Source of the DNA: Vibrio alginolyticus NBRC 15630 = ATCC 17749 | GTDB taxonomy: Bacteria; Pseudomonadota; Gammaproteobacteria; Enterobacterales; Vibrionaceae | DNA: 32,000 nucleotides | Assembly: GCF_000354175.2 (NCBI RefSeq) | Contig: NC_022349.1 | Location: 2,820,001 to 2,852,000 of the forward strand | Direction of reading: 5' to 3' | The notes under the pieces: generated by a model | The model's input: only the letters and a program-made list of their open reading frames with translations | Told to the model about the DNA's origin: nothing | The model's database searches: none | Translations under genes and position numbers: made by a program | Shown here: positions 6,769-30,754 of the stretch, in pieces | Numbering within the stretch: the first letter of the stretch is position 1 | Layout of the letters: the number at the start of each line of letters is the position of its first letter

Positions 6769-6807
6769 TTTGCAGTTTGATTTATTTTTTTTGCATTTTT
6801 ATTCTGG
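6769..6807 (+). promoter_or_regulatory. Candidate tandem ARG boxes (ArgR operator) overlapping the carA SD
   Basis: Two 18-mers, tttgcagtttgatttatt (6769-6786) and tttgcatttttattctgg (6790-6807), are separated by exactly 3 bp. Against the E. coli ARG-box consensus WNTGAATWWWWATTCANW they show 4 and 3 mismatches in the 16 specified positions. Two boxes 3 bp apart is the canonical ArgR operator geometry. Confidence 0.35.
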
Positions 6808-6815
6808 AGGTTGTC

Positions 6816-7955
6816 TTGGGTAAATTAGCACTGTTGGTCCTAGAAGATGGGACAGTGTTCCGCGGAGTGTCCATAGGGGCAGATGGTCTTTCCGTTGGTG
6901 AAGTCGTTTTTAATACCTCGATGACGGGGTATCAAGAAATCCTCACTGATCCTTCCTATTCTCAGCAAATCGTCACTCTCACTTATCCTCACATTGGCAA
7001 TACCGGAACCACTTCCGAAGATGAAGAATCCTCTTCCATTCATGCACAAGGCCTTGTGATTCGCGATCTTCCTCTAATCGCTTCTAACTTCCGTAACGAA
7101 CAATCCCTCTCTGATTATCTTAAGTCTCAAAATATCGTTGGCATCGCTGATATCGATACTCGTAAGCTCACTCGTATCCTGCGTGAAAAAGGTGCTCAAA
7201 ACGGCTGTATTGTTGCGGGCAACAACCTCGACGAAGCTTTGGCACTAGCGAAAGCAAAAGAATTCCCAGGCTTAAAAGGAATGGACCTTGCGAAAGAAGT
7301 TACAACAAAAGAAGCGTATCAATGGAAGCAAGGTTCGTGGACGCTTGAAGGTGGACTTCCAGAGGCGAAAGATGACAGCGAGCTGCCATACCACGTTGTC
7401 GCTTACGACTTCGGCGCAAAACGCAACATCTTACGAATGTTGGTTGACCGTGGCTGCCGCTTAACGGTTGTACCTGCAGAAACGTCAGCGGAAGAAGTTC
7501 TGGCACTAAATCCAGATGGCGTATTCTTATCAAACGGCCCTGGTGACCCAGAACCATGTACTTACGCGATTGAAGCAACCAAAGTGTTCCTAGAAAAAGG
7601 CCTGCCAATTTTTGGTATTTGTCTAGGTCACCAAATTCTGGCGCTAGCATCAGGTGCGCAAACGGTGAAAATGAAGTTTGGTCACCACGGTGCAAACCAC
7701 CCAGTAAAAGATTTAGAGCGTAACGTTGTGATGATTACCTCGCAAAACCACGGCTTTGCGGCAGATGAAGCAACATTACCGGAAAACTTACGTGCTACTC
7801 ACGTATCGCTATTTGATGGCTCTTTGCAAGGTATCCACCGCACAGACAAGCCAGCATTTAGCTTCCAAGGTCACCCAGAAGCGAGCCCTGGTCCACATGA
7901 CGCGGCACCGCTATTTGACCACTTTATCGAACTAATCAAAAAACACAGCGCTTAA
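6816..7955 (+). CDS. carA: Carbamoyl-phosphate synthase small (glutaminase) subunit CarA
   Basis: The track ORF starts at 6720, but the homologous part begins at [17 protein letters not shown] (E. coli: [17 protein letters not shown]). TTG at 6816 lies 5 nt after SD GGAGG (6806-6810), giving 379 aa. The catalytic GICLGHQ motif is present. The carB 3'UTR complementarity ends exactly at this start. Confidence 0.92.
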
Positions 7956-11205: not shown

Positions 11206-11282
11206 CAGATAAAAATCAGTAAGCTCATTAATCAGGGCTTACATGACAACCTCATTGCCCGCTCATTTGAGCGGGCTTTTTT
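11206..11282 (+). ncRNA. carZ: CarZ-like 3'UTR-derived sRNA candidate (5' end not determinable here)
   Basis: The carB 3'UTR folds as hairpin GTAAGC/GCTTAC (11219-11224 / 11237-11242), then a single-stranded stretch, then the terminator. The single-stranded stretch contains GACAACCTC (11245-11253), the exact reverse complement of GAGGTTGTC (6807-6815), which covers the carA SD up to the TTG start. As I recall, a carAB 3'UTR sRNA (CarZ) that represses carAB was described in V. cholerae. Confidence 0.5.
11257..11282 (+). terminator. Rho-independent terminator of carAB
   Basis: GCCCGCTC-attt-GAGCGGGC (11257-11264 / 11269-11276) followed by tttttt (11277-11282). Confidence 0.85.
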
Positions 11283-11700
11283 ATATCGAGGTTTTTCTAA
11301 AATGAAGAGCATTAAAGTGTGCTAGGAACGATTGGTATGCTTCGCTTTTGAAGATCATTAAGCTAATGATGGCAAGCAATGTACCCAAAGATGAAGAAAT
11401 AGTACTACCACTTGCTGCAACAAAATTAATGCTGCAAGTGAGAATGATAAAAGAGATAGTAAGTAAGTTTATTTTTGCAGCAATACTTAATCCTTTGCTT
11501 ATTGTCAGAATGTTTGGAATGCATACAACAACAACCGTAATAGCTCCCAATGTAAGAAGGTAAGTATCTAGAGCAATGTGTTGAGTGAAAGAAAACCAGT
11601 CATTCCAAATGCTCAAGCTAATAGCCAGACCAATAGTCAATGCCAAGTATAAACATATACTTAGTGAGATGTTTGCTATGCTAATTGATTTAGTATTCAA
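11281..11700 (-). CDS. Small polytopic membrane protein (about 4 TM helices), unknown family; candidate immunity/partner protein
   Basis: 139-aa ORF, almost entirely hydrophobic, with about four TM-length segments (SIANISLSICLYLALTIGLAISLSIW; LLTLGAITVVVVCIPNIL; INLLTISFIILTCSINFVAA; LGTLLAIISLMIF). Start is TTG at 11700, 8 nt after GAGGA (11709-11713). It overlaps the stop of the upstream gene by 11 nt. Low GC. I recognise no motif. Confidence 0.6.
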   Translation of the reverse strand: MNTKSISIANISLSICLYLALTIGLAISLSIWNDWFSFTQHIALDTYLLTLGAITVVVVCIPNILTISKGLSIAAKINLLTISFIILTCSINFVAASGSTISSSLGTLLAIISLMIFKSEAYQSFLAHFNALHFRKTSI

Positions 11701-12604
11701 CTTTCAATTCCTCATAGATTCCAATTGCAAGATTTCTTAACTCTCCCGAATAACCGCTTCCTACTATGCTAATTGAGCCTCCAATTGCATCTAGAAGCTG
11801 ATGAGAAATGGATGCGGATATTGTTGCTTGTGAATACCTCTTAGGAATTTCTCCTGACAACATTAGCTGTTTACGAGCTTTATTCGAAATGCTCGGAAGG
11901 TTTTTACGGATGATTTCTTTAGTTAATCTTGTTCTTTCTTGTCTGTTTAAGCCTTTTAGAATCTCGGGAACGCCTTTCTTAGTGGTTTGCTTAAGAGATT
12001 GAACCATTTTTATCGTTTGATATCCACTAGCGCCCGCTCCAGCTAAGGAGATGTAATCTAAAGCTTTAGTTGTATTTTGATACCACTCATTACTGTCTAT
12101 ATCCGATAATTTGTCTGGTGATTTAGATACCATACGGGTTCTTGCTACTCCAATAGCACATTGAGCTGTGGCAGCAACAGTAGCGGCGTGTGAGATATAG
12201 GACATAGTTACGCCCACAGGACCACTTACTGGTATTGTTAGCCCCGAACCAACTACCCCAATCCAGCCAATCGCTGCACCAATACAGCTAATGCTCGCTG
12301 ATAGAAGCTCTTGATTGAATCTTGATTTTGACTCTTCCTGTTTTATTTTTTTTGCAAATTCTTGAGATGATTGTAATTTTATCGGTTCTCGTAGAATGAT
12401 AAAGGTAGGATTGATATGGCATGTGGATTTAAAGTCTCTTAAGCGTACAACGGTGAATTTGTTATCAATATAAATTACACCCGCACCGCTAGTCTCTGGT
12501 TTAGCGTCAATAACGCTGAATAGCTGATTAACATTCACTATCTGTTCGATTTTTAAGCGTAATTGCTGCTCTTTTATTGATGGTCGAGTTAGTAAGGCTT
12601 CCAT
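11690..12604 (-). CDS. Hypothetical 304-aa protein: N-terminal soluble domain plus Gly/Ala-rich membrane hairpin; unknown family; candidate membrane-acting effector
   Basis: ATG-initiated ORF, long for this AT-rich context. Residues 99-154 (LLSASISCIGAAIGWIGVVGSGLTIPVSGPVGVTMSYISHAATVAATAQCAIGVA) form two adjacent hydrophobic, small-residue-rich helices. Two further Gly-rich patches occur (ISLAGAGASGY; AIGGSISIVGSGYSG). No signal peptide and no catalytic motif I recognise. Confidence 0.72.
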   Translation of the reverse strand: MEALLTRPSIKEQQLRLKIEQIVNVNQLFSVIDAKPETSGAGVIYIDNKFTVVRLRDFKSTCHINPTFIILREPIKLQSSQEFAKKIKQEESKSRFNQELLSASISCIGAAIGWIGVVGSGLTIPVSGPVGVTMSYISHAATVAATAQCAIGVARTRMVSKSPDKLSDIDSNEWYQNTTKALDYISLAGAGASGYQTIKMVQSLKQTTKKGVPEILKGLNRQERTRLTKEIIRKNLPSISNKARKQLMLSGEIPKRYSQATISASISHQLLDAIGGSISIVGSGYSGELRNLAIGIYEELKVEY

Positions 12605-12853
12605 TATTTTCGTTTTTTATCAGATTAAATATTTCCTATTAAGACAGCATTTTCTTTTTCTATCAAAATATTAAGAGGCTCTTGAGGTGAGGCTCTATAT
12701 TTGGATGTAATTGATATTTTTAATGTATCATTCTCTAGATTTATTGACTGATGAAAATTAGGAATAGATTGGTGTCTTGACTTTCCATTGGTAGTTTTGT
12801 GAATAAGTGCTACCGTTTCTTCCTCTTTGATACCTCTTCAAAAAGGAAGTGTA

Positions 12854-18311: not shown

Positions 18312-19727
<1,416 letters not shown>

Positions 19728-19744
19728 TCAAACATCCTCCATGA

Positions 19745-22700
19745 TTACTGTGCTTGAACACGCAGCTCTGCGGCACTGCGGCTCTGGTGACCAAGTAGCG
19801 TGCGAAGATCTGCCGCTTGTGGTTTCACCAAATAGAACTTTGGAATCCATTCATCAAAGTTCGCCAAAATATTTTCAGCATGACTCGACCCTGTTTCTTC
19901 AAGGTGTTCCGCAATTAGGCCACGCAAATGTTCTTGGTGGATGTAAAGATCGGACAATGAGATGGCTTCGACAGACTCAGTATTAACTCGACCTTCAAAG
20001 CTTTGGTTCTCATCCAGAACATAGGCAAAGCCTCCAGTCATACCCGCGCCAAAGTTCACACCTGTCGCACCAAGAATGGCAACAATACCGCCAGTCATAT
20101 ACTCACAAGCGTTATCGCCAGCACCTTCAATGACGGCTATCGTACCTGAGTTTCGTACGCCGAAACGCTCACCTGCTTTACCGGCTGCAAATAGTTTACC
20201 GCCGGTCGCGCCGTACAGACAGGTGTTACCAATGATGGTTGCTTCATTACACTTAAATGCAGTGCCAAGGTGAGGTTTGATAACCACTTTACCACCCGCC
20301 ATGCCTTTGCCCACGTAGTCGTTCGCATCGCCCGTGAGGTAAAGCTCTACACCACCTGCGTTCCAAACACCAAAGGACTGGCCTGCGGTGCCGTCAAGAT
20401 AGATTTTGATAGGGGAAGCCGCCAACCCTTGGTTGCCATAGCGTTTTGCTATTTCGCCAGATAAGCGTGCACCAACAGAACGATCAGTGTTGATGACATT
20501 GTAGAAGAAACTTGCCGATTGACTGTTTTCGACCGCATGCATGGCATCATCAACGATCTTTTGGTTGAGCTCAGCTTTATCAAACGGTTTGTTTGGCTCT
20601 GTCCAAAATAGCGGATGGCCCTCAGGTGATACTGGAGCTTCTAGAATATTGGATAGATCCAGCTTGGTCTGTTTCGCTGTAAATCCCTCTACTGACTCAA
20701 GTAAATCGGTACGACCAATCAAGTCCGTCAGCTTTTCAACGCCAAGTTCGGCGAGTAATCCGCGCACTTCGTCTGCCAGGCCGATGAAGTAATTCATCAC
20801 CATTTCTGGTAGACCTTTGAAGTATTCTTTACGCAGTGTCTCGTCTTGAGTCGCAACCCCAGTTGCACAGTTGTTGAGGTGACAAATTCGTAGGAACTTA
20901 CAACCCATAGCGACCATTGGCGCAGTACCAAAACCGAAGCTTTCTGCACCTAAAATTGCGGCTTTAACTACGTCTAAACCAGTCTTTAGACCACCGTCTA
21001 CCTGTAAGCGGATCTTATGACGCAGACCATTAGCAACCAGAGCTTGTTGTGTCTCTGCCAACCCCAACTCCCAAGGGCTACCAGCGTATTTTACCGAAGT
21101 TAATGGGCTTGCTGCGGTACCACCGTCGTAACCCGAAATGGTAATAAGATCAGCGTAAGCCTTGGCTACACCCGTTGCGATGGTGCCGACACCTGGCTCG
21201 GAGACGAGTTTTACCGAAACCAGCGCATTCGGGTTGACTTGTTTAAGGTCGAAGATCAGTTGGGCCAAATCTTCAATCGAATAGATATCGTGATGCGGAG
21301 GAGGGGAGATCAGAGTCACGCCTTGTACCGAATAACGCAGTTTTGCGATTTCTGCGGTGACTTTGTGTCCTGGTAGCTGTCCACCTTCACCCGGTTTCGC
21401 ACCTTGTGCCACCTTGATTTGCAGTACATCCGCATTAGTCAGGTAATGCGGCGTTACACCAAATCGGCCAGAAGCAATCTGTTTGATACGTGAGTTACGC
21501 TCAGTACCGAAACGGCGAGGATCTTCACCGCCTTCACCCGAGTTAGAGTAACCACCAAGACGGTTCATCGCCGTTGCAAGTGCTTCATGCGCTTCTGGGC
21601 TAAGTGCGCCAATGGACATTGCCGCTGAGTCAAAGCGTTTGAACAGTTCAGTGCGTGGTTCTATTTGCTCAAGTGGCAGCGGTGAGTCTGATTTTTTCAG
21701 CGACATTAAGTCACGCAGCATGGCAACAGGGCGTTGGTTTACCTGCTTAGCAAAGCTCTGATAGTCGTTACTTTCGCCAGATTTAACGGCCTGTTGCAGC
21801 GTGCCGACGACATCCGGGTTGTAAGCATGATACTCACCTCCATGGACGTACTTTAACAAGCCTCCATGATCAATCGATTTGCGTTTCGCCCATGCTTTAC
21901 GAGATAAGTTTGTAAGATCTTGCTGGAAGTCGTCAAAATTCGCGCCTTCAATTCGAGTTGTGACGCCTTTAAAACACAGATCGACCACATCTTGGCTCAA
22001 GCCAACTGCTTCAAATAGTTGTGAGCAGCGGTAAGAGGCGATGGTTGAGATCCCCATTTTCGACATGATCTTGTACAGGCCTTTGTTGATGCCGTATTGG
22101 TAGTTTTGCATCACATCGCGGTAGTCTTTCTCTAGCGCTTTATCATCAATCAGTTTACCTAACGCTTCATAAGCAAGGTATGGGTAAACCGCAGTGGCAC
22201 CAAAACCAAGCAAGACGGCAAATTGGTGTGGATCACGGGCTGTTGCGGTTTCGACAACAATGTTGGCATCGCAACGCAAGTTCGCGTCAATCAGACGAGT
22301 TTGAACGGCGCCGACTGCCATTGCTGCTGGAATTGGCAACTTACCTTTGACCAAGGCTCTGTCCGAAAGCACCACTAAAACCGTGCCTTCACGAACGACT
22401 TGCTCTGCTTGCTCACACAGATCATTAATGGCTTGTTTAAGATCTTTTTGTTGTGGGTCGTAGTTGATATCGAGAATGGTATTACGGTAATGATCGTCAC
22501 TCAGCTCTAGTAGTTGCTGCATGTCTGAATAGAGCAGTACTGGAGAATCAAAGGTTACACGATGCGCGTGGCCATCGGTTTCACAGAAGACGTTCATCTC
22601 CTGGCCGATGCTGGTCGCCAGCGACATGACGTGTTTCTCACGCAGCGGATCGATTGGTGGGTTGGTGACCTGCGCGAACTTCTGACGGAAGTAATCAGTC

Positions 22701-24208
22701 ACCAAGCGCTCTTTCGAAGAAAGAACCGCCATCGGGGTGTCATCACCCATCGAACCGACGGCTTCTTGCCCCATATCACCGAGGACACGCAATATTTGAT
22801 CGACTTCTTCATTGCTCATGGCAAACTGCTTTTGATAAGTCTTAAGCAAGTCTTCATCAAAGCTACGCTCACCTACTTGATCTTCAGGCAGTTGAGAGAA
22901 CGGTGTTAGTTTGCGAACGTTGTTCTCCATCCATTCGCGATAAGGGTGACGAGATTTCAGATCATTATCGATCTCGCTAGATTGCCAAAGCTTACCTTTA
23001 CGAGTGTCGATGACGAGCAATTCCCCCGGACCTACACGACCTTTTTTGGCAACTTCATCTGGGGCGTAATTCCAAATCCCTACCTCAGATGCCAGAGTGA
23101 TCAACTTGTCTTTGGTAATTACATAACGAGCTGGACGCAGACCGTTTCGGTCTAGGTTACAAGCAGCATAACGACCATCGGATAGTACGATACCTGCTGG
23201 ACCATCCCATGGTTCCATGTGTTTGGAGTTGAAATCGTAAAACGCACGCAAATCCGGATCCATGTCAGGGTGGTTTTGCCATGCTGGCGGCACAAGCATA
23301 CGCATGGCACGGAAGATATCCATGCCGCCAGCTAAAAAGAGATCTAGCATATTATCTAAGCTAGACGAGTCTGAGCCTGTCTCGTTCACAAACGGTGCTG
23401 CAGTTTGTAGGTCAGGCAGCAGTGGTGACGAGAACTTGTAAGCACGAGCGCGTGCCCATTGTCGGTTACCTTCAATGGTATTGATCTCACCATTATGAGC
23501 AAGGTAGCGGAACGGTTGAGCTAATGGCCAACGCGGTTGAGTGTTGGTAGAAAAACGCTGGTGGAACAGACAGATAGCAGATTCCATACGTAGATCGGCA
23601 AGATCAAGATAAAAGCGCGGTAAGTCCGCAGGCATGCATAGGCCTTTGTACACCAAAACTTGAGTCGATAAGCTACAGATGTAGAAATCCGGATCTTCGG
23701 TGATTTGTTTCTCGATGCGACGGCGTGCGATGTAGAGACGACGTTCAATGTCGCGTTCGCGCCAACCTGCCGGTGCAGAGACAAAGACTTGCTGAATATT
23801 TGGAAGCGAGTTGGCCGCAATTGGACCGAGTACTTCTGAATTAGTGGGTACTTCACGCCAACCAGCCACAGTTAGCGTCTCTTGCGCCAGTTCTTTGTTG
23901 ACGATGTCTTTAGCGAGTTGAGCTTTGACTGGATCTTGGTTGAAGAAAATCATCCCTACGGCGTATTGCTTGCCAAGGTTGAAACCATTTTCTTCGGCAA
24001 TAAGACGTAAATAGGAATCGGGCTTTTGTAATAGAAGACCACAACCATCACCAGTTTTACCATCGGCGGCGATACCACCACGGTGAGTCATGCGGTCAAG
24101 TGCAGAAATTGCTGTACGTACCAGCTTGTGGCTTTGTTCGCCTTCCATATGCGCGATCAAGCCAAATCCACAGTTGTCTTTCTCAAGACTTGGATCATAA
24201 AGAGCCAT
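19745..24208 (-). CDS. gltB: Glutamate synthase large subunit GltB, E. coli-type
   Basis: 1487 aa. [27 protein letters not shown]... and the C-terminus ...[17 protein letters not shown] are collinear with E. coli GltB. The Ntn-amidotransferase catalytic Cys follows a short propeptide. SD agggaga upstream. Confidence 0.97.
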
Positions 24209-24656: not shown

Positions 24657-26126
24657 TTAAGCAGAAAGCATCAGTGAATCTGCTTTTGCTTCTAGGTTTG
24701 TGCCACCCATTAGGTAATCATCGATAGCACGGGCACATTCGCGGCCTTCATTGATACAACGAACCACCAAAGATTGGCCTGTTCGCATATCACCAGCAGC
24801 AAATACGCCTTCTTGGTTAGTAGCAAAATCTTGAGTTGCTACGTTACCGCGATCGTCTAGTGCGATATCCAGTTGAGCAAGTACGCCTGTTGGTTCAGGG
24901 TGTAGGAATCCCATCGCTAGAAATGCCATATCACATGGAATCACACGCTCGCTGCCTTCTACTTCTTTGAAGCTTGGACGCTCGCCTGGTTTCGCATCTT
25001 GCCAAACGATATCAGCTAAACGAAGACCGGTAACTTCACCTTTGTCATTGCCGATGAACTCTTTGGTTAGGATATTCCAGTGACGATCAACGCCTTCTTC
25101 ATGAGACGTCGAAGTACGTAGGATCATCGGGTACTGTGGCCATGGCATATTGGCAGGACGTTTCTCTGGTGGAATCGGCATGATTTCAACCTGAGTGATG
25201 CTTGCTGCACCGTGGCGGTTTGATGTACCTACACAGTCAGAACCCGTATCACCACCACCGATAACGACAACGTGTTTACCCGCGGCGTGAAGTTCTTCAC
25301 CCTTAAGATCCATGTCGTTGGCACGGCGGTTATTTTGACCTAGGAATTCCATCGCGAAGTGAACGCCTTTTAGTTCACGACCCGGAACGGGCAAATCACG
25401 AGGAACGGTTGAACCACCAGTCAGTAGAACCACATCGAACTCTTGACGCAGCTGCTGAGCATTCACATCAACACCAACATGTTGGTTAACTTTGAATTCA
25501 ATACCCGCTTCTGCCATCAGGTTGATCTTACGATCAATCACGTCCATACCCAGTTTGAAATCTGGGATACCAAAACGTAGCAGACCGCCTACTTTCTCGT
25601 CTCGCTCGAATACTGTTACAGTATGACCAGCGCTGTTTAGCTGCTCAGCAGCCGCAAGGCCAGCTGGGCCCGAACCGATGATCGCAACGGTTTTACCAGT
25701 GCGAGAACGTGGTGTTTTTGGTTTGGCGTACCCTTCACGATACGCTGTTTCTACGATGGTTTTCTCGATATTACAGATAGTGATTGGGTCTTGGTTGATG
25801 CCAAGTACACAAGCACTTTCACACGGAGCAGGGCAAACACGACCAGTAAACTCTGGGAAGTTATTGGTTGAGCTTAGAATGTTCCATGCTTCTTCCCAGC
25901 TATCACGATAAACCGCATCGTTAAACTCTGGGATGATGTTACCGATAGGGCAGCCGTTATGACAAAACGGCACACCACAATCCATACAACGAGAAGCCTG
26001 AGTATTGATCTTGTCACCAAACTCCTCGTTCAGAACGAACTCTTTGTTGTTCTTGATGCGTTCAGCTGGGTCGATCTTCTGTGGTAGTTCACGACCATGC
26101 TCTAAAAATCCAGTAGGCTTACCCAT
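24657..26126 (-). CDS. Glutamate synthase small-subunit paralogue (second, divergent type)
   Basis: 489 aa. [26 protein letters not shown]..., Fe-S cysteines [20 protein letters not shown], dinucleotide fold [14 protein letters not shown]. It is clearly a GltD-family protein, but the sequence differs from the 18312-19724 copy along its whole length. Its ATG shares one base with the upstream stop (TAATG). Confidence 0.9.
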
Positions 26127-29100
26127 TATACGGCCTCCACTTGAGTTTCGTTTCCTTGAGACTGTGCTTCAGCTTTACGCTTTTGAAGAACCGCTTTGTA
26201 GTCACGCGGCATTACCTTAACCATAGAGGCTAGGCTTGCTTCAAAGTTGTCTAGGAAAGACTGAGCGACTTCACTTCCTGTGAATTGAACATGCTTAGTT
26301 AGCATGTCGAGTAATAGATCTCTGTCTTCTTGCTCGATTGGGTCTAGGTCTACTAGCTCTGGGTTCAGTTTTGACTCAAAGTCACCTGATTTATCCCATA
26401 CGTAAGCCACGCCGCCACTCATACCAGCGGCAAAGTTACGACCTGTTGAACCAAGGATAATTGCTGCACCGCCAGTCATGTATTCACAACCGTGGTCACC
26501 GACGCCTTCTACTACTACTTTCGCACCTGAGTTACGAACACAGAAACGTTCACCAGCCATACCGCGAATGAAAGACTCACCCGAAGTTGCACCGTAGAAA
26601 CACACGTTACCAACCACGATGTTGTCTTCCGCGACAATGCTTGATTTCGCATCTGGATAAAGTACTAAGGTACCGCCAGATAAGCCTTTACCCCAGTAGT
26701 CGTTCGCGTCGCCTTCCACTTCGAACTTCACGCCCTTAGCTAGGAATGCACCGAATGACTGACCCGCAGAACCTTTGAACTTCACGTTCATTGGCTTAGG
26801 TAGACCTGCATCTTTGTACACTTTCGAGATTTCGTTCGACAGCATGGTACCTGCAGAGCGGTCCGTGTTAACGATAGGGAACTCGGCATTCACCGCTTCG
26901 CCTTTCTCTAGTGAAGGAATTGCCGCTTTAATCAGCTTACGGTCTAGCACTTCTTCTAGGTTGTGATTCTGCTGAGCTTGGTTGAATACACCATCAGCTT
27001 CACGTGGTTGCTCAACGTGGAGAACAGGAGACAGATCTAGGTTCTTGTATTTCCAGTGAGAAATGTCTTGGCGAATCTTCAGCTTCTGACCTTGACCGAC
27101 CATTTCATCGATAGTGCGGAAGCCAAGTTCAGCCATGATTTCACGTAGACCTTGTGCCATGTATTGGAAGAAGGTTACGACGTCTTCAACGCGACCATCA
27201 AAGCGCTCGCGAAGCGTCTTGTTCTGAGTCGCGATACCAACAGGACAAGTGTTCTTATGACACTTACGCATCATGATACAACCTTCAACCACTAATGCTG
27301 CGGTTGCTACGCCCCATTCTTCTGCACCAAGTAGTGTTGCCACTGCAAGGTCGCGAGGTGTCTTCATCTGACCATCCGCTTGAACCACGATACGGTTACG
27401 TAGACCGTTCTTCAGTAGCGTTTGGTGCGTTTCTGCCAAGCCAAGTTCCCAAGGAAGACCTGTATGGCGGATTGAAGACATTGGGGATGCACCTGTACCG
27501 CCGTCGAAACCTGCGATTAGTACAACGTCCGCTTTCGCTTTCGCGACACCAGAAGCGATCGTACCTACGCCTGCTTCTGATACCAGCTTCACGTTTACAC
27601 GGCCTGCGCGGTTCGCGTTCTTCAAGTCGTAGATAAGCTGAGCCAAATCTTCGATTGAGTAGATATCGTGGTGTGGTGGTGGAGAGATAAGGCCAACGCC
27701 CGGAGTCGAGTGACGCGTTGCACCGATCCAGTCATCTACTTTATCGCCTGGTAGCTGACCACCTTCACCTGGCTTCGCACCTTGAGCCATTTTGATTTGT
27801 AGCTCTTCAGCGTTAGTTAGGTAGTAAGAGGTTACGCCGAAACGACCTGAAGCCACCTGCTTGATTGCAGAGCGTTCCCAATCGCCGTTCTCTTTGCGCT
27901 CGAAACGCATTGGGTCTTCACCACCTTCACCAGAGTTCGATTTCGCGCCAAGACGGTTCATCGCAACTGCCAGTGTGGAGTGTGCTTCGTAAGAAATAGA
28001 ACCGAATGACATAGCGCCCGTCGCGAAGCGTTTCACGATGCTTTCAATTGGTTCGACTTCGTCGATAGAGATAGAACCTGCTGGGTTCTTAATGAATTCT
28101 AGCTGGCTACGCAGAGTTACTGCGTTGTCACCTTGTTTATCTACGGCTGTCGCGTACTGCTTGAACTGATCGTAGTTCTTGTTGCGCGTAGACTCTTGCA
28201 GTAGAGAAATGGTTTCTGGGTTGAATAGGTGCTTCTCACCACGCTGTTTCCATTGGTAAACACCACCAACATCCAGCATTTGAATTGGGATTTCGCGTTG
28301 TGGGTAACCGATGCGGTGACGGATCAGCACTTCTTTGGCGATATCATCAAGGGTTAGACCTTGGATACGAGAAACTGTACCTGTGAAGTATTTGTCTACC
28401 ACGGATTTATGGATGCCCAAGGCTTCGAAGATTTGCGCACCATGGTACGACTGTAGCGTTGAGATACCCATCTTCGAGAAGATCTTCAGAAGACCGCCAT
28501 TGATCGCTTTACGGTAGTTGTTGAACAGATCACGAGGGTTCGCTTCTGGATCCAACTTCTTCGTACGTTGAAGTTCAATGATGGTTTCAATCACTAGGTA
28601 AGGGTTAACCGCATTCGCACCGTAACCAAGTAGCGTTGCAAAGTGGTGCGTTTCACGCGCGTCACCAGTTTCAACCACGATGTCACACTTCGCACGTAGA
28701 CCTTTACGGATCAAGTGGTGGTGCACTGCGCCAACTGCCAGCATTGCTGGGATCGCCGCGTGGTTTGAATTCACTGCGCGGTCAGTGAGTAGGATGATTG
28801 AGTAACCATCGATAACCGCGTCTTCTGCGTATTGGCAGATACGTTTTAATGCACGCTCAAGTTTGCCTTGATCTTCACTAGCTTGGAATACGATATCCAA
28901 CGTTTTCGCTTGTAGGTGCTCGTTATCGATCGCACGCAGTTTTTCAAGCTCTGAGTTCGCCAGAACCGGCGATTCTAATTCGACTTTCTGACAGTGAAGT
29001 GGTGTTTCAGTCAGAAGGTTTTGGTCTTTACCCAAGTAAGTGTTCAGCGACATAACCATACGCTCACGGATCGGGTCGATCGGTGGGTTGGTTACCTGTG

Positions 29101-30676
29101 CGAACAGCTGCTTGAAGTAGTTAGAAAGATGTTGAGACTGATGAGATAGAACCGCAAGAGGCCAGTCGGCACCCATTGCTGATAATGGCTCTTTCGCGTC
29201 ATTCGCCATTGGAACGATGATTTCGTTCACTTCTTCAGTGCTTACGCCAAACGCTTGTTGGCGGTGTAGAAGGTGTTCTGGCTTAGGTTGGCTGAACTGG
29301 TTGCTCGCATCTGGCAGCTTCTTCAAGCTCAGTAGGTTTTCTTCTACCCATTTCTCGTAAGGCTGTGCCGTTGCGATGGTGTCTTTCACTTCTTCATCGG
29401 AGATGATGCGACCTTGCTCTAGGTCTGCAACGAAGATACGACCCGGTTGTAGACGACCACGGAACTCTACGTTCTCTGGTTCAATATCCACAACACCAGA
29501 TTCAGATGCCATCACTAGGAAGTTATCTTTGGTCACTGTGTAGCGAGAAGGGCGCAAACCGTTACGGTCTAGTGTCGCACCAACTTGAACACCATCAGTA
29601 AAACATACGGAAGCCGGGCCATCCCATGGTTCCATGATGTTCGCATGGTACTGATAGAACGCGCGACGTTTAGGATCCATGTTTTTGTTTTCTTGCCATG
29701 CTTCCGGAATCATCATCATCAATGCGTGTGGCAGGCTGCGACCAGACAGAACTAGGAGCTCAAGTGCCATGTCAAAGTTAGATGAATCCGAGCTGCCTTC
29801 CTGACAGATTGGAAGAAGCATGTCGATTTCAGCCTGAGTAAACAGGTCTGATTCTAGGATTGCTTCACGGGCTTTCATCCAGTTCAAGTTACCGCGAACT
29901 GTATTGATTTCACCGTTGTGGGCAATGTAACGGAAAGGCTGTGCAAGACGCCATTTCGGGAAGGTATTGGTAGAGAAACGAGAGTGTACCAGTGCCAGTG
30001 CAGTCACCATGGTCGGGTTTTGCAGATCAAGGAAGTACTGCGGTACTTGCTCGGTCGTTAACTGACCTTTGTACACCAATGTCTTGTAAGACATAGAGTT
30101 AATGTAGAAGTCGTCACCAATGTTCGAAACGCTTTCTAGGCAAACACGTACAGTGTAGTTACGAAGCACGTACAGTTTGCGTTCTAGTTCTTCAGGTGTG
30201 ATGCCAGGGCCACCAGAGATAAACACATGCTCAAACTGAGGCTCTGTGCTTAGTGGGTCTGCACCGATCATTGAGTTGTCGGTTGGCAGAACGCGGTAGC
30301 CGATAACTTCAAGATCTAGACGCTGTGCATTACGTTCTAGAATGTCACGGCATTGCTCGCGTTTGTATTCGTCTTTCGGGAAAAGAACGACACCAACACC
30401 ATACTTTTCAAACGAAGGCAGTTTAATGCCTAGCTTAACGGCTTCTTCTAATAGGAATTCATGAGGTTTTTGTAGCAAGATACCCGCACCGTCACCGCTG
30501 CATGGGTCACAACCTTGACCACCACGGTGTTCCATGCGAGCCAGCATATCCAATGCTTGAGTCACTACTTCATGAGATTTACGGTTTTTAAGGTGAGCAA
30601 CAAAACCGATACCACAAGCGTCATGCTCCAGTTCCGGAGTGTACAGACCCTGTGGATTTTGCTCTCTATCTACCAT
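26126..30676 (-). CDS. Glutamate synthase large-subunit paralogue (second, divergent type)
   Basis: Track ORF runs to 30724. I place the start at ATG 30676, 7 nt after SD GGAAGGA, giving MVDREQNPQGLYTPELEHDACGIGFVAHLKNRKSH (1516 aa). The glutaminase, FMN/Fe-S (…[19 protein letters not shown]…) and C-terminal beta-helix (GDANDYWGKG) regions are all present. Confidence 0.9.
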   Translation of the reverse strand: MVDREQNPQGLYTPELEHDACGIGFVAHLKNRKSHEVVTQALDMLARMEHRGGQGCDPCSGDGAGILLQKPHEFLLEEAVKLGIKLPSFEKYGVGVVLFPKDEYKREQCRDILERNAQRLDLEVIGYRVLPTDNSMIGADPLSTEPQFEHVFISGGPGITPEELERKLYVLRNYTVRVCLESVSNIGDDFYINSMSYKTLVYKGQLTTEQVPQYFLDLQNPTMVTALALVHSRFSTNTFPKWRLAQPFRYIAHNGEINTVRGNLNWMKAREAILESDLFTQAEIDMLLPICQEGSSDSSNFDMALELLVLSGRSLPHALMMMIPEAWQENKNMDPKRRAFYQYHANIMEPWDGPASVCFTDGVQVGATLDRNGLRPSRYTVTKDNFLVMASESGVVDIEPENVEFRGRLQPGRIFVADLEQGRIISDEEVKDTIATAQPYEKWVEENLLSLKKLPDASNQFSQPKPEHLLHRQQAFGVSTEEVNEIIVPMANDAKEPLSAMGADWPLAVLSHQSQHLSNYFKQLFAQVTNPPIDPIRERMVMSLNTYLGKDQNLLTETPLHCQKVELESPVLANSELEKLRAIDNEHLQAKTLDIVFQASEDQGKLERALKRICQYAEDAVIDGYSIILLTDRAVNSNHAAIPAMLAVGAVHHHLIRKGLRAKCDIVVETGDARETHHFATLLGYGANAVNPYLVIETIIELQRTKKLDPEANPRDLFNNYRKAINGGLLKIFSKMGISTLQSYHGAQIFEALGIHKSVVDKYFTGTVSRIQGLTLDDIAKEVLIRHRIGYPQREIPIQMLDVGGVYQWKQRGEKHLFNPETISLLQESTRNKNYDQFKQYATAVDKQGDNAVTLRSQLEFIKNPAGSISIDEVEPIESIVKRFATGAMSFGSISYEAHSTLAVAMNRLGAKSNSGEGGEDPMRFERKENGDWERSAIKQVASGRFGVTSYYLTNAEELQIKMAQGAKPGEGGQLPGDKVDDWIGATRHSTPGVGLISPPPHHDIYSIEDLAQLIYDLKNANRAGRVNVKLVSEAGVGTIASGVAKAKADVVLIAGFDGGTGASPMSSIRHTGLPWELGLAETHQTLLKNGLRNRIVVQADGQMKTPRDLAVATLLGAEEWGVATAALVVEGCIMMRKCHKNTCPVGIATQNKTLRERFDGRVEDVVTFFQYMAQGLREIMAELGFRTIDEMVGQGQKLKIRQDISHWKYKNLDLSPVLHVEQPREADGVFNQAQQNHNLEEVLDRKLIKAAIPSLEKGEAVNAEFPIVNTDRSAGTMLSNEISKVYKDAGLPKPMNVKFKGSAGQSFGAFLAKGVKFEVEGDANDYWGKGLSGGTLVLYPDAKSSIVAEDNIVVGNVCFYGATSGESFIRGMAGERFCVRNSGAKVVVEGVGDHGCEYMTGGAAIILGSTGRNFAAGMSGGVAYVWDKSGDFESKLNPELVDLDPIEQEDRDLLLDMLTKHVQFTGSEVAQSFLDNFEASLASMVKVMPRDYKAVLQKRKAEAQSQGNETQVEAV

Positions 30677-30754
30677 AGATACATCCTTCCAGTTCAATGT
30701 CGACGCAAAAGTACCGGGCAGCAAATACTACCTAGACTATTGATTACGTCTTGT

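Follow-up and report, generated by a model that had tools for sequence, protein, structure and literature searches.

The window analyzed in our study is a stretch of 32,000 nucleotides (nt) of Vibrio alginolyticus NBRC 15630 = ATCC 17749 (NC_022349.1, positions 2,820,001-2,852,000). Between its carB and yfcA genes lies a low-GC insert with two minus-strand genes, which very probably form an orphan toxin/immunity pair of the Ssp4 family, that is, one not linked to the genes of a type VI secretion system (T6SS), working as described for Serratia. The remaining genes of the window are housekeeping genes (lpxC, dciA, secA, mutT, dapB, carAB, yfcA, a LysR regulator, cobD and related genes, and two gltBD pairs), as the initial annotation had said and as the window annotation confirms. 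The features of the locus are the following:

11690..12604, minus strand: Ssp4-family T6SS effector gene, 304 amino acids (aa), ATG start; product identical to AGV18440.1 (V. alginolyticus)
11281..11700, minus strand: putative cognate immunity gene, 139 aa, four transmembrane (TM) segments, TTG start; Sip4-like architecture
11690-11700, minus strand: gene overlap of 11 nt (effector 3' end / immunity 5' end)
11708..11713, minus strand: Shine-Dalgarno sequence GAGGAA of the immunity gene, inside the effector 3' end and 7 nt before the TTG, by direct sequence reading
12605..12743, minus strand: effector upstream region within the insert, presumed promoter location
11284..12743, no strand: whole inserted islet of ~1.46 kb (1,460 bp), with an uncertain right edge (~12727-12743)
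11206..11283, plus strand: left boundary, formed by the conserved carB 3' untranslated region (3'UTR) and its terminator hairpin (11257-11276), from a terminator scan and conservation across Vibrio species

The two open reading frames (ORFs) and their overlap lie at the coordinates originally noted, and the hand G+C counts that accompanied them (32, 40 and 29 per 100 nt) were exact on recount. The composition of the insert is indeed unlike that of its flanks: its GC content is 0.366 versus 0.46 for the window, the lowest of any stretch of that length in the 32 kb, with a z of -3.7 against non-overlapping windows of equal length. The effector gene has a GC content of 0.39 (0.30 at third codon positions, GC3) and the immunity gene one of 0.34 (GC3 0.31), while the flanking genes range from 0.42 to 0.49 (GC3 0.39-0.46). 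The stop codon of the immunity gene (11281-11283) falls within the T-tract of the carB terminator. The two genes show signs of coupling, namely the 11-nt overlap and the immunity gene's own Shine-Dalgarno sequence, and overlaps of 1-11 nt between an effector gene and its downstream gene were seen repeatedly at homologous loci. A consensus scan of the region upstream of the effector gene (12605-12743) gave no strong sigma-70 site. No insertion sequence (IS), integrase or tRNA was found within the interval and, again in agreement with the initial annotation, no flanking direct repeat: the searches for flanking or terminal direct or inverted repeats returned only matches of chance size, and a target-site duplication was likewise not found.

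The 304-aa protein is a member of the Ssp4 family. It matched the NCBIfam equivalog NF053808.1 ('Ssp4 family T6SS effector', curated cutoff of 300 bits) with 309.9 bits and an E value of 1.4e-92, and the alignment spans the full profile (protein residues 18-295 against profile positions 3-280 of 280). The 90% cluster of AGV18440.1 includes UniProt A0A7Y0QXI4 and A0A7Y4B2A5; Reglinski et al. (EMBO J 2025, PMC12669606) list both in their Dataset EV2 as homologues of Ssp4, with scores of 179.7 and 180.4 against a threshold of 100 for their Ssp4 hidden Markov model. The pair had been proposed as undescribed, a description that these two results overturn; the family and the membership of this cluster in it are already published. 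The class that the initial annotation had in mind, an orphan membrane-depolarising T6SS effector with a small polytopic immunity protein, is the one that the evidence supports. UniRef and other public records name several members of the cluster 'hypothetical protein' or 'NAD synthetase'; we found no support for the latter label, which looks like a propagated misannotation. Neither the 304-aa nor the 139-aa protein gave a significant match in Pfam.

A word-indexed search identified 42 homologues of the 304-aa protein, with identities of 99% in V. alginolyticus, 81% in V. hyugaensis, 60% in V. nigripulchritudo, ~51% in V. parahaemolyticus, V. vulnificus and V. owensii, and ~40% in Thalassomonas, Pseudoalteromonas and Pseudomonas. 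A profile search of 1.84 billion cluster representatives recovered 561 relatives, 138 of them at E <= 1e-30. As comparison partner from the group that holds Serratia Ssp4 we took an Enterobacter member of it (P0150) in place of the Serratia founder sequence, and BLASTP aligned the two proteins end to end with 26% identity over 294 residues (E 7e-28). The C47/C123/C165 signature of Serratia Ssp4 had no carrier in the profile search or in the Enterobacter-seeded homologue search, and the plasmid-borne copies came down to one weak Klebsiella match.

Special attention was given to the cysteines of the 304-aa protein. There are exactly three (C62, C107 and C149), all invariant in the alignment of the marine and Pseudomonas members, and C107 and C149 remain invariant once members of the Enterobacterales group join (54 sequences). 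Their spacing of 42 residues is that of C123 and C165 in Serratia Ssp4, and a cysteine pair 42 residues apart is near-universal across the family. It has been reported that C47, C123 and C165 of Serratia Ssp4 are all essential and that the DsbA of the target cell is required (PMC5792426). The Gly/Ala-rich hydrophobic region of the 304-aa protein begins at residue 100. The secondary structure in AlphaFold2 (AF2) models, whose tertiary arrangement is unreliable, consists of two N-terminal helices and a small sheet of three to four strands followed by helices; at this low confidence it is compatible with the published prediction for Ssp4, of about 13 helices and one beta-sheet (PMC12669606). A Foldseek search against the PDB gave no match at E <= 0.001 and a sequence-profile search of the PDB only a chance match; the authors of the Ssp4 study likewise found no relative in the PDB (PMC12669606).

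The 139-aa partner is a four-TM protein, with hydrophobic 19-mers at residues 11-29, 42-60, 73-91 and 99-117. The counts of lysine and arginine per loop are 1/0/1/0/3, and because these basic residues are enriched at both termini, an N-in/C-in topology is predicted. It gave no match in the family or PADLOC searches. An identical 139-aa protein occurs on 190 contigs (377 index blocks), with the effector always upstream of it. The proteins encoded downstream of other Ssp4-like genes have 146-165 aa, three to four TM segments and basic C-terminal tails. By eye only, we also noticed a motif, [KNRS]-[ST]-x-x-Y-x-x-[FLM], placed directly after the last TM helix and followed by the basic tail; its carriers, otherwise dissimilar, are the window protein (11281-11700, minus strand) and the proteins encoded at L104:6832-7296, L101:8912-9406 and 6882-7322, and L098:8915-9412.

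The founder of the family, Ssp4 of Serratia marcescens, is an Hcp-dependent T6SS cargo effector that is toxic from the periplasm and not from the cytoplasm, dissipates the membrane potential without lysing cells and, in vitro, makes pores selective for cations (Reglinski et al. EMBO J 2025, PMC12669606). Its immunity protein, Sip4, is an inner-membrane protein that neutralises it and has four TM helices in an N-in/C-in arrangement shown experimentally, and the homologues of Ssp4 form three groups, an Enterobacterales group, a Pseudomonas group and one of 'marine genera' that includes Vibrio; most are followed by a small gene, and many lie far from T6SS genes (PMC12669606). From this Serratia work we infer delivery by T6SS and Hcp, activation by DsbA, pore formation and immunity for the window pair. 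The 304-aa protein would be loaded as Hcp-dependent cargo onto one of the T6SSs of its host and injected into the periplasm of nearby Gram-negative cells, where the DsbA of the target would oxidise it via its three conserved cysteines. Its Gly/Ala-rich helices would then enter the inner membrane and oligomerise into a cation-selective pore, and the resulting collapse of the membrane potential would stop growth with no lysis. The translationally coupled 139-aa four-TM protein would sit in the inner membrane and shield the producing cell and its kin. Two antibacterial T6SSs are present in V. alginolyticus (PMC4549250). A link between the family and Hcp is found in Pseudomonas, where the gene of a homologue with 39% identity (P0037) directly adjoins hcp and is followed by a gene of 164 aa. 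On the other side of this hcp lies a second, paralogous Ssp4-like pair (308 + 146 aa), which also passes NF053808; the two effectors are 49% identical, and with the single orphan hcp between them the two pairs (L101:5956-9406) form an Hcp-centred auxiliary module.

The window pair has much in common with Ssp4/Sip4 of S. marcescens Db10 (Fritsch 2013; Mariano 2018; Reglinski et al. EMBO J 2025): the NF053808 family and a similar length, in low-confidence models a mostly alpha-helical composition with one small beta-sheet, Gly/Ala-rich hydrophobic helices, three cysteines of which the last two are identically spaced, a small four-TM downstream gene, and an orphan site among housekeeping genes, which is the ilv cluster in Serratia and the carB-yfcA interval here. 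It differs in that the window protein falls in the 'marine genera' group, being ~26-30% identical to members of the Enterobacterales group, and in that its immunity protein is shorter (139 aa) and is likened to Sip4 by architecture, not by sequence.

Our study also established that the site is polymorphic. Among the species listed in our survey, which do not include the closest Harveyi-clade species, at least 13 Vibrio species have an empty site, with 171-375 bp from carB to yfcA and no trace of either gene; among them are V. sonorensis, V. sinaloensis, V. profundi, V. hepatarius, V. anguillarum, V. ouci and V. comitans. Because these 13 species have only 171-375 bp there, the cassette is a true insertion. 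Comparison with 10 empty-site species places the left junction at 11283/11284, directly after the T-tract of the carB terminator, and the right junction at ~12727-12743, immediately ahead of a conserved motif that precedes yfcA. This motif, TTGACTGATGAAAATTAGGAATAG (12744-12767, plus strand), is kept in many Vibrio species, empty sites included, and may be a promoter or operator of yfcA. In other species unrelated cargo occupies the same spot, namely an IS66 element, a beta-barrel-like gene of 165 aa, or a block of several genes that spans 4.7 kb. The presence/absence polymorphism and alternative cargo for which the initial annotation had suggested looking are thus both found, the latter as alternative cassettes in conspecific genomes too. 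In V. penaeicida an Ssp4-like pair (305 + 157 aa; L115:9001-10384) lies directly downstream of carB, with a different far flank, an Indigoidine_A/PfkB operon; a related Vibrio sp. (L114:9001-10324) has the same far flank and no carB.

Among genomes that encode an identical CarB, at least three cassettes alternate at the site:

Type A, the type of the window: 304 + 139 aa; 309.9 bits against NF053808
Type B: 304 + 154 aa; 340 bits against NF053808; effector 51% identical to that of type A and 99% identical to the V. parahaemolyticus allele
Type C: 289 + 141 aa; an unrelated 289-aa protein with three hydrophobic segments (residues 150-223) and no family match

Type B is hosted by V. parahaemolyticus, V. 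vulnificus, V. owensii and some V. alginolyticus (P0009-P0016; L011:8001-9369, L104:6832-8200). Type C was found in V. alginolyticus/diabolicus genomes, complete in L106 (7058-8349) and also present in L109 and L110, and truncated in L103 and L111. Types A and B and the Pseudomonas homologues are all above the NF053808 cutoff, and the 289-aa and 141-aa proteins of type C have no Pfam, NCBIfam or PADLOC match, which leaves type C as a candidate effector/immunity pair without an assigned family. That a type B effector in a V. alginolyticus-group genome shares 99% identity with the V. parahaemolyticus allele and 51% with type A implies exchange between species. Types A and B share the insertion site, the orientation, the promoter region, the first ~46 codons and the family. 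They differ in that identity drops to 47% past residue 46 and in that the 154-aa downstream protein is unrelated in sequence to the 139-aa protein, so that it presumably has a distinct immunity specificity. At the DNA level, the promoter region and the first ~45 codons are 83% identical between type A and the V. parahaemolyticus allele of type B, and no similarity detectable by blastn exists beyond them. An A-like allele of V. hyugaensis matches type B with 97.8% identity up to residue 46 and with 46.9% afterwards, and because of this fall the alignments point clearly to a recombination breakpoint near effector codon 46.

The effector is found truncated as well, at 268, 243 and 171 aa. In V. 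harveyi (L113:3015-4393) a DUF1240-like 142-aa membrane protein accompanies a 130-aa homologue of the immunity protein (66% identity), and no effector is present. Among the type A effector alleles there are 17 synonymous and 5 nonsynonymous variable sites, the latter conservative, and because of this ratio the substitution pattern indicates that the effector is under purifying selection. It is possible, and we propose it tentatively as something that we doubt somewhat more than we believe, that the spot between carB with its CarZ terminator and yfcA is a hot spot of the Harveyi clade that swaps membrane-targeting effector/immunity cargo by homologous exchange, in which type C would be an undescribed T6SS family and the N-terminal ~46 residues a shared delivery module for loading onto Hcp. 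The exchange in such a hot spot may be anchored at one end by carB and at the other by yfcA together with the promoter and the first ~46 codons of the effector.

It is important to consider that several observations weigh against reading the insert as an Ssp4-type T6SS weapon with its immunity gene. The NCBIfam score exceeds the cutoff by only ~10 bits, and the first cysteine is placed differently from that of the Enterobacterales group, at a group-specific position. The two AF2 models of the 304-aa protein have low confidence, with predicted local distance difference test (pLDDT) values of 59.3 and 64.8. The alignments by hhalign between the 139-aa protein and the downstream proteins of five other Ssp4-like genes reached probabilities of at most 14%; sequence divergence is usual among immunity proteins. 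No T6SS gene occurs in the window or beside any Vibrio copy examined. The effector at L007:5097-6011 is frameshifted by a 1-nt deletion at codon 30, and at L112:6810-7229 the immunity ORF is broken by a ~58-nt unrelated patch while the effector is intact; these two disruptions could be real decay or assembly errors. V. alginolyticus 12G01 has this allele class (EAS75238.1), and the published tables of its T6SS1 and T6SS2 secretomes (PMC4549250) contain no evident Ssp4-like protein. In the literature we found no experimental study of a Vibrio member of the Ssp4 family. An inversion via the inverted repeats I4/I5 was considered for L112 and ruled out, as the patch has been replaced by unrelated sequence.

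Part of these observations would also fit a defensive relic, in which the immunity gene is kept against Ssp4-type attacks by neighbours and the strain does not use the effector, or has ceased to use it. The identical immunity protein on 190 contigs, the occurrence of the effector as 268-, 243- and 171-aa truncations as well, the frameshift in L007, the V. harveyi locus with an immunity homologue and no effector, and the missing effector in the 12G01 tables all agree with such a relic; we nevertheless consider it unlikely, given that the effector of the window is intact, that it has full length at most of the loci examined, and that the 17 synonymous against 5 conservative nonsynonymous sites speak for selection on the effector protein. 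A membrane toxin/immunity pair that acts independently of the T6SS, such as a bacteriocin-like or addiction-type module with a stabilising effect on the islet, is very improbable. Such a pair would be in keeping with the position of all Vibrio copies far from T6SS genes and with the 304-aa protein, in which no signal peptide or recognised T6SS delivery marker was found; however, the founder of the family is T6SS- and Hcp-dependent, homologues adjoin hcp, and no export, lysis or signal-peptide feature exists. The addiction module is further disfavoured because the founder is harmless in the cytoplasm. Less probable still is the two-gene abortive-infection or anti-phage system, depolarising the host membrane upon infection, that had also been suggested: it is recommended by the layout alone (a larger membrane-active protein and a small polytopic one in a low-GC islet) and is left unsupported by the strong match to a T6SS effector family, by surroundings that have no phage or defence genes, and by PADLOC, which gave no significant match for the window proteins or the alternative cassettes (best match PDC-S29 for the 304-aa protein, E 0.024 and 12 bits; none for the 139-aa protein).

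An orphan Ssp4-family effector with its immunity gene is thus the interpretation that we favour, and its relation to other membrane-targeting effectors can be stated more precisely. The initial annotation had compared the pair to the Tme/Tmi modules of Vibrio (Fridman et al. 2020). The two kinds may be analogous, each with an orphan effector of ~300 aa that acts, or in the window protein would act, from the periplasm on the membrane potential, and with diverse downstream immunity proteins that have TM helices. The Tme domain is C-terminal and has a near-invariant DxxK followed by a TM helix and a flanking D (Fridman et al. 2020); this defining motif occurs nowhere in the 304-aa sequence, so that a pair of the Tme/Tmi kind proper is not what the insert encodes: the window protein belongs to another family, and Tme1 is an effector of T6SS1. 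Ssp6/Sip6 (Mariano et al. 2019) and further ion-selective pore formers of T6SSs (Tke5, VasX) resemble what is proposed for the window pair, in that small alpha-helical cargo proteins depolarise the inner membrane and are countered by a membrane immunity protein. They differ in belonging to unrelated sequence families; Ssp6 is confined to the Enterobacterales (PMC12669606).

Our results leave the current knowledge of the mechanism of the family unchanged. Their main gain is in annotation: across hundreds of V. alginolyticus genomes, a pair labelled hypothetical or 'NAD synthetase' can be given the name of an Ssp4-family effector and its immunity gene, which extends the known weaponry of a species that is pathogenic in aquaculture and in humans and has two antibacterial T6SSs. 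With types A, B and C, truncations and an immunity-only form, the alleles at this one chromosomal site make up a natural system for effector/immunity exchange and loss, and both the recombining effector/immunity site by carB and the unassigned type C pair are modest leads.

Two further observations concern the window outside the insert. The 77 nt from the carB stop codon to the terminator (11206-11283, plus strand) are conserved across Vibrio species and give a full-length, sub-threshold match to the CyaR-like Rfam family (27.9 bits, the gathering score being 47). Within them, GACAACCTC (11245-11253) is perfectly complementary over 9 nt to GAGGTTGTC, which lies over the carA Shine-Dalgarno sequence (6806-6814). 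CarZ is an autoregulatory small RNA (sRNA) from the 3'UTR of carAB in V. cholerae (PMC7398697), and the conserved carB 3'UTR of the window is probably its orthologue; the cassette sits directly after this CarZ-like terminator and is transcribed towards it. Finally, the window contains two tandem glutamate-synthase-like pairs of a large and a small subunit on the minus strand, at 18312-24208 (1487 + 470 aa) and 24657-30724 (1532 + 489 aa).

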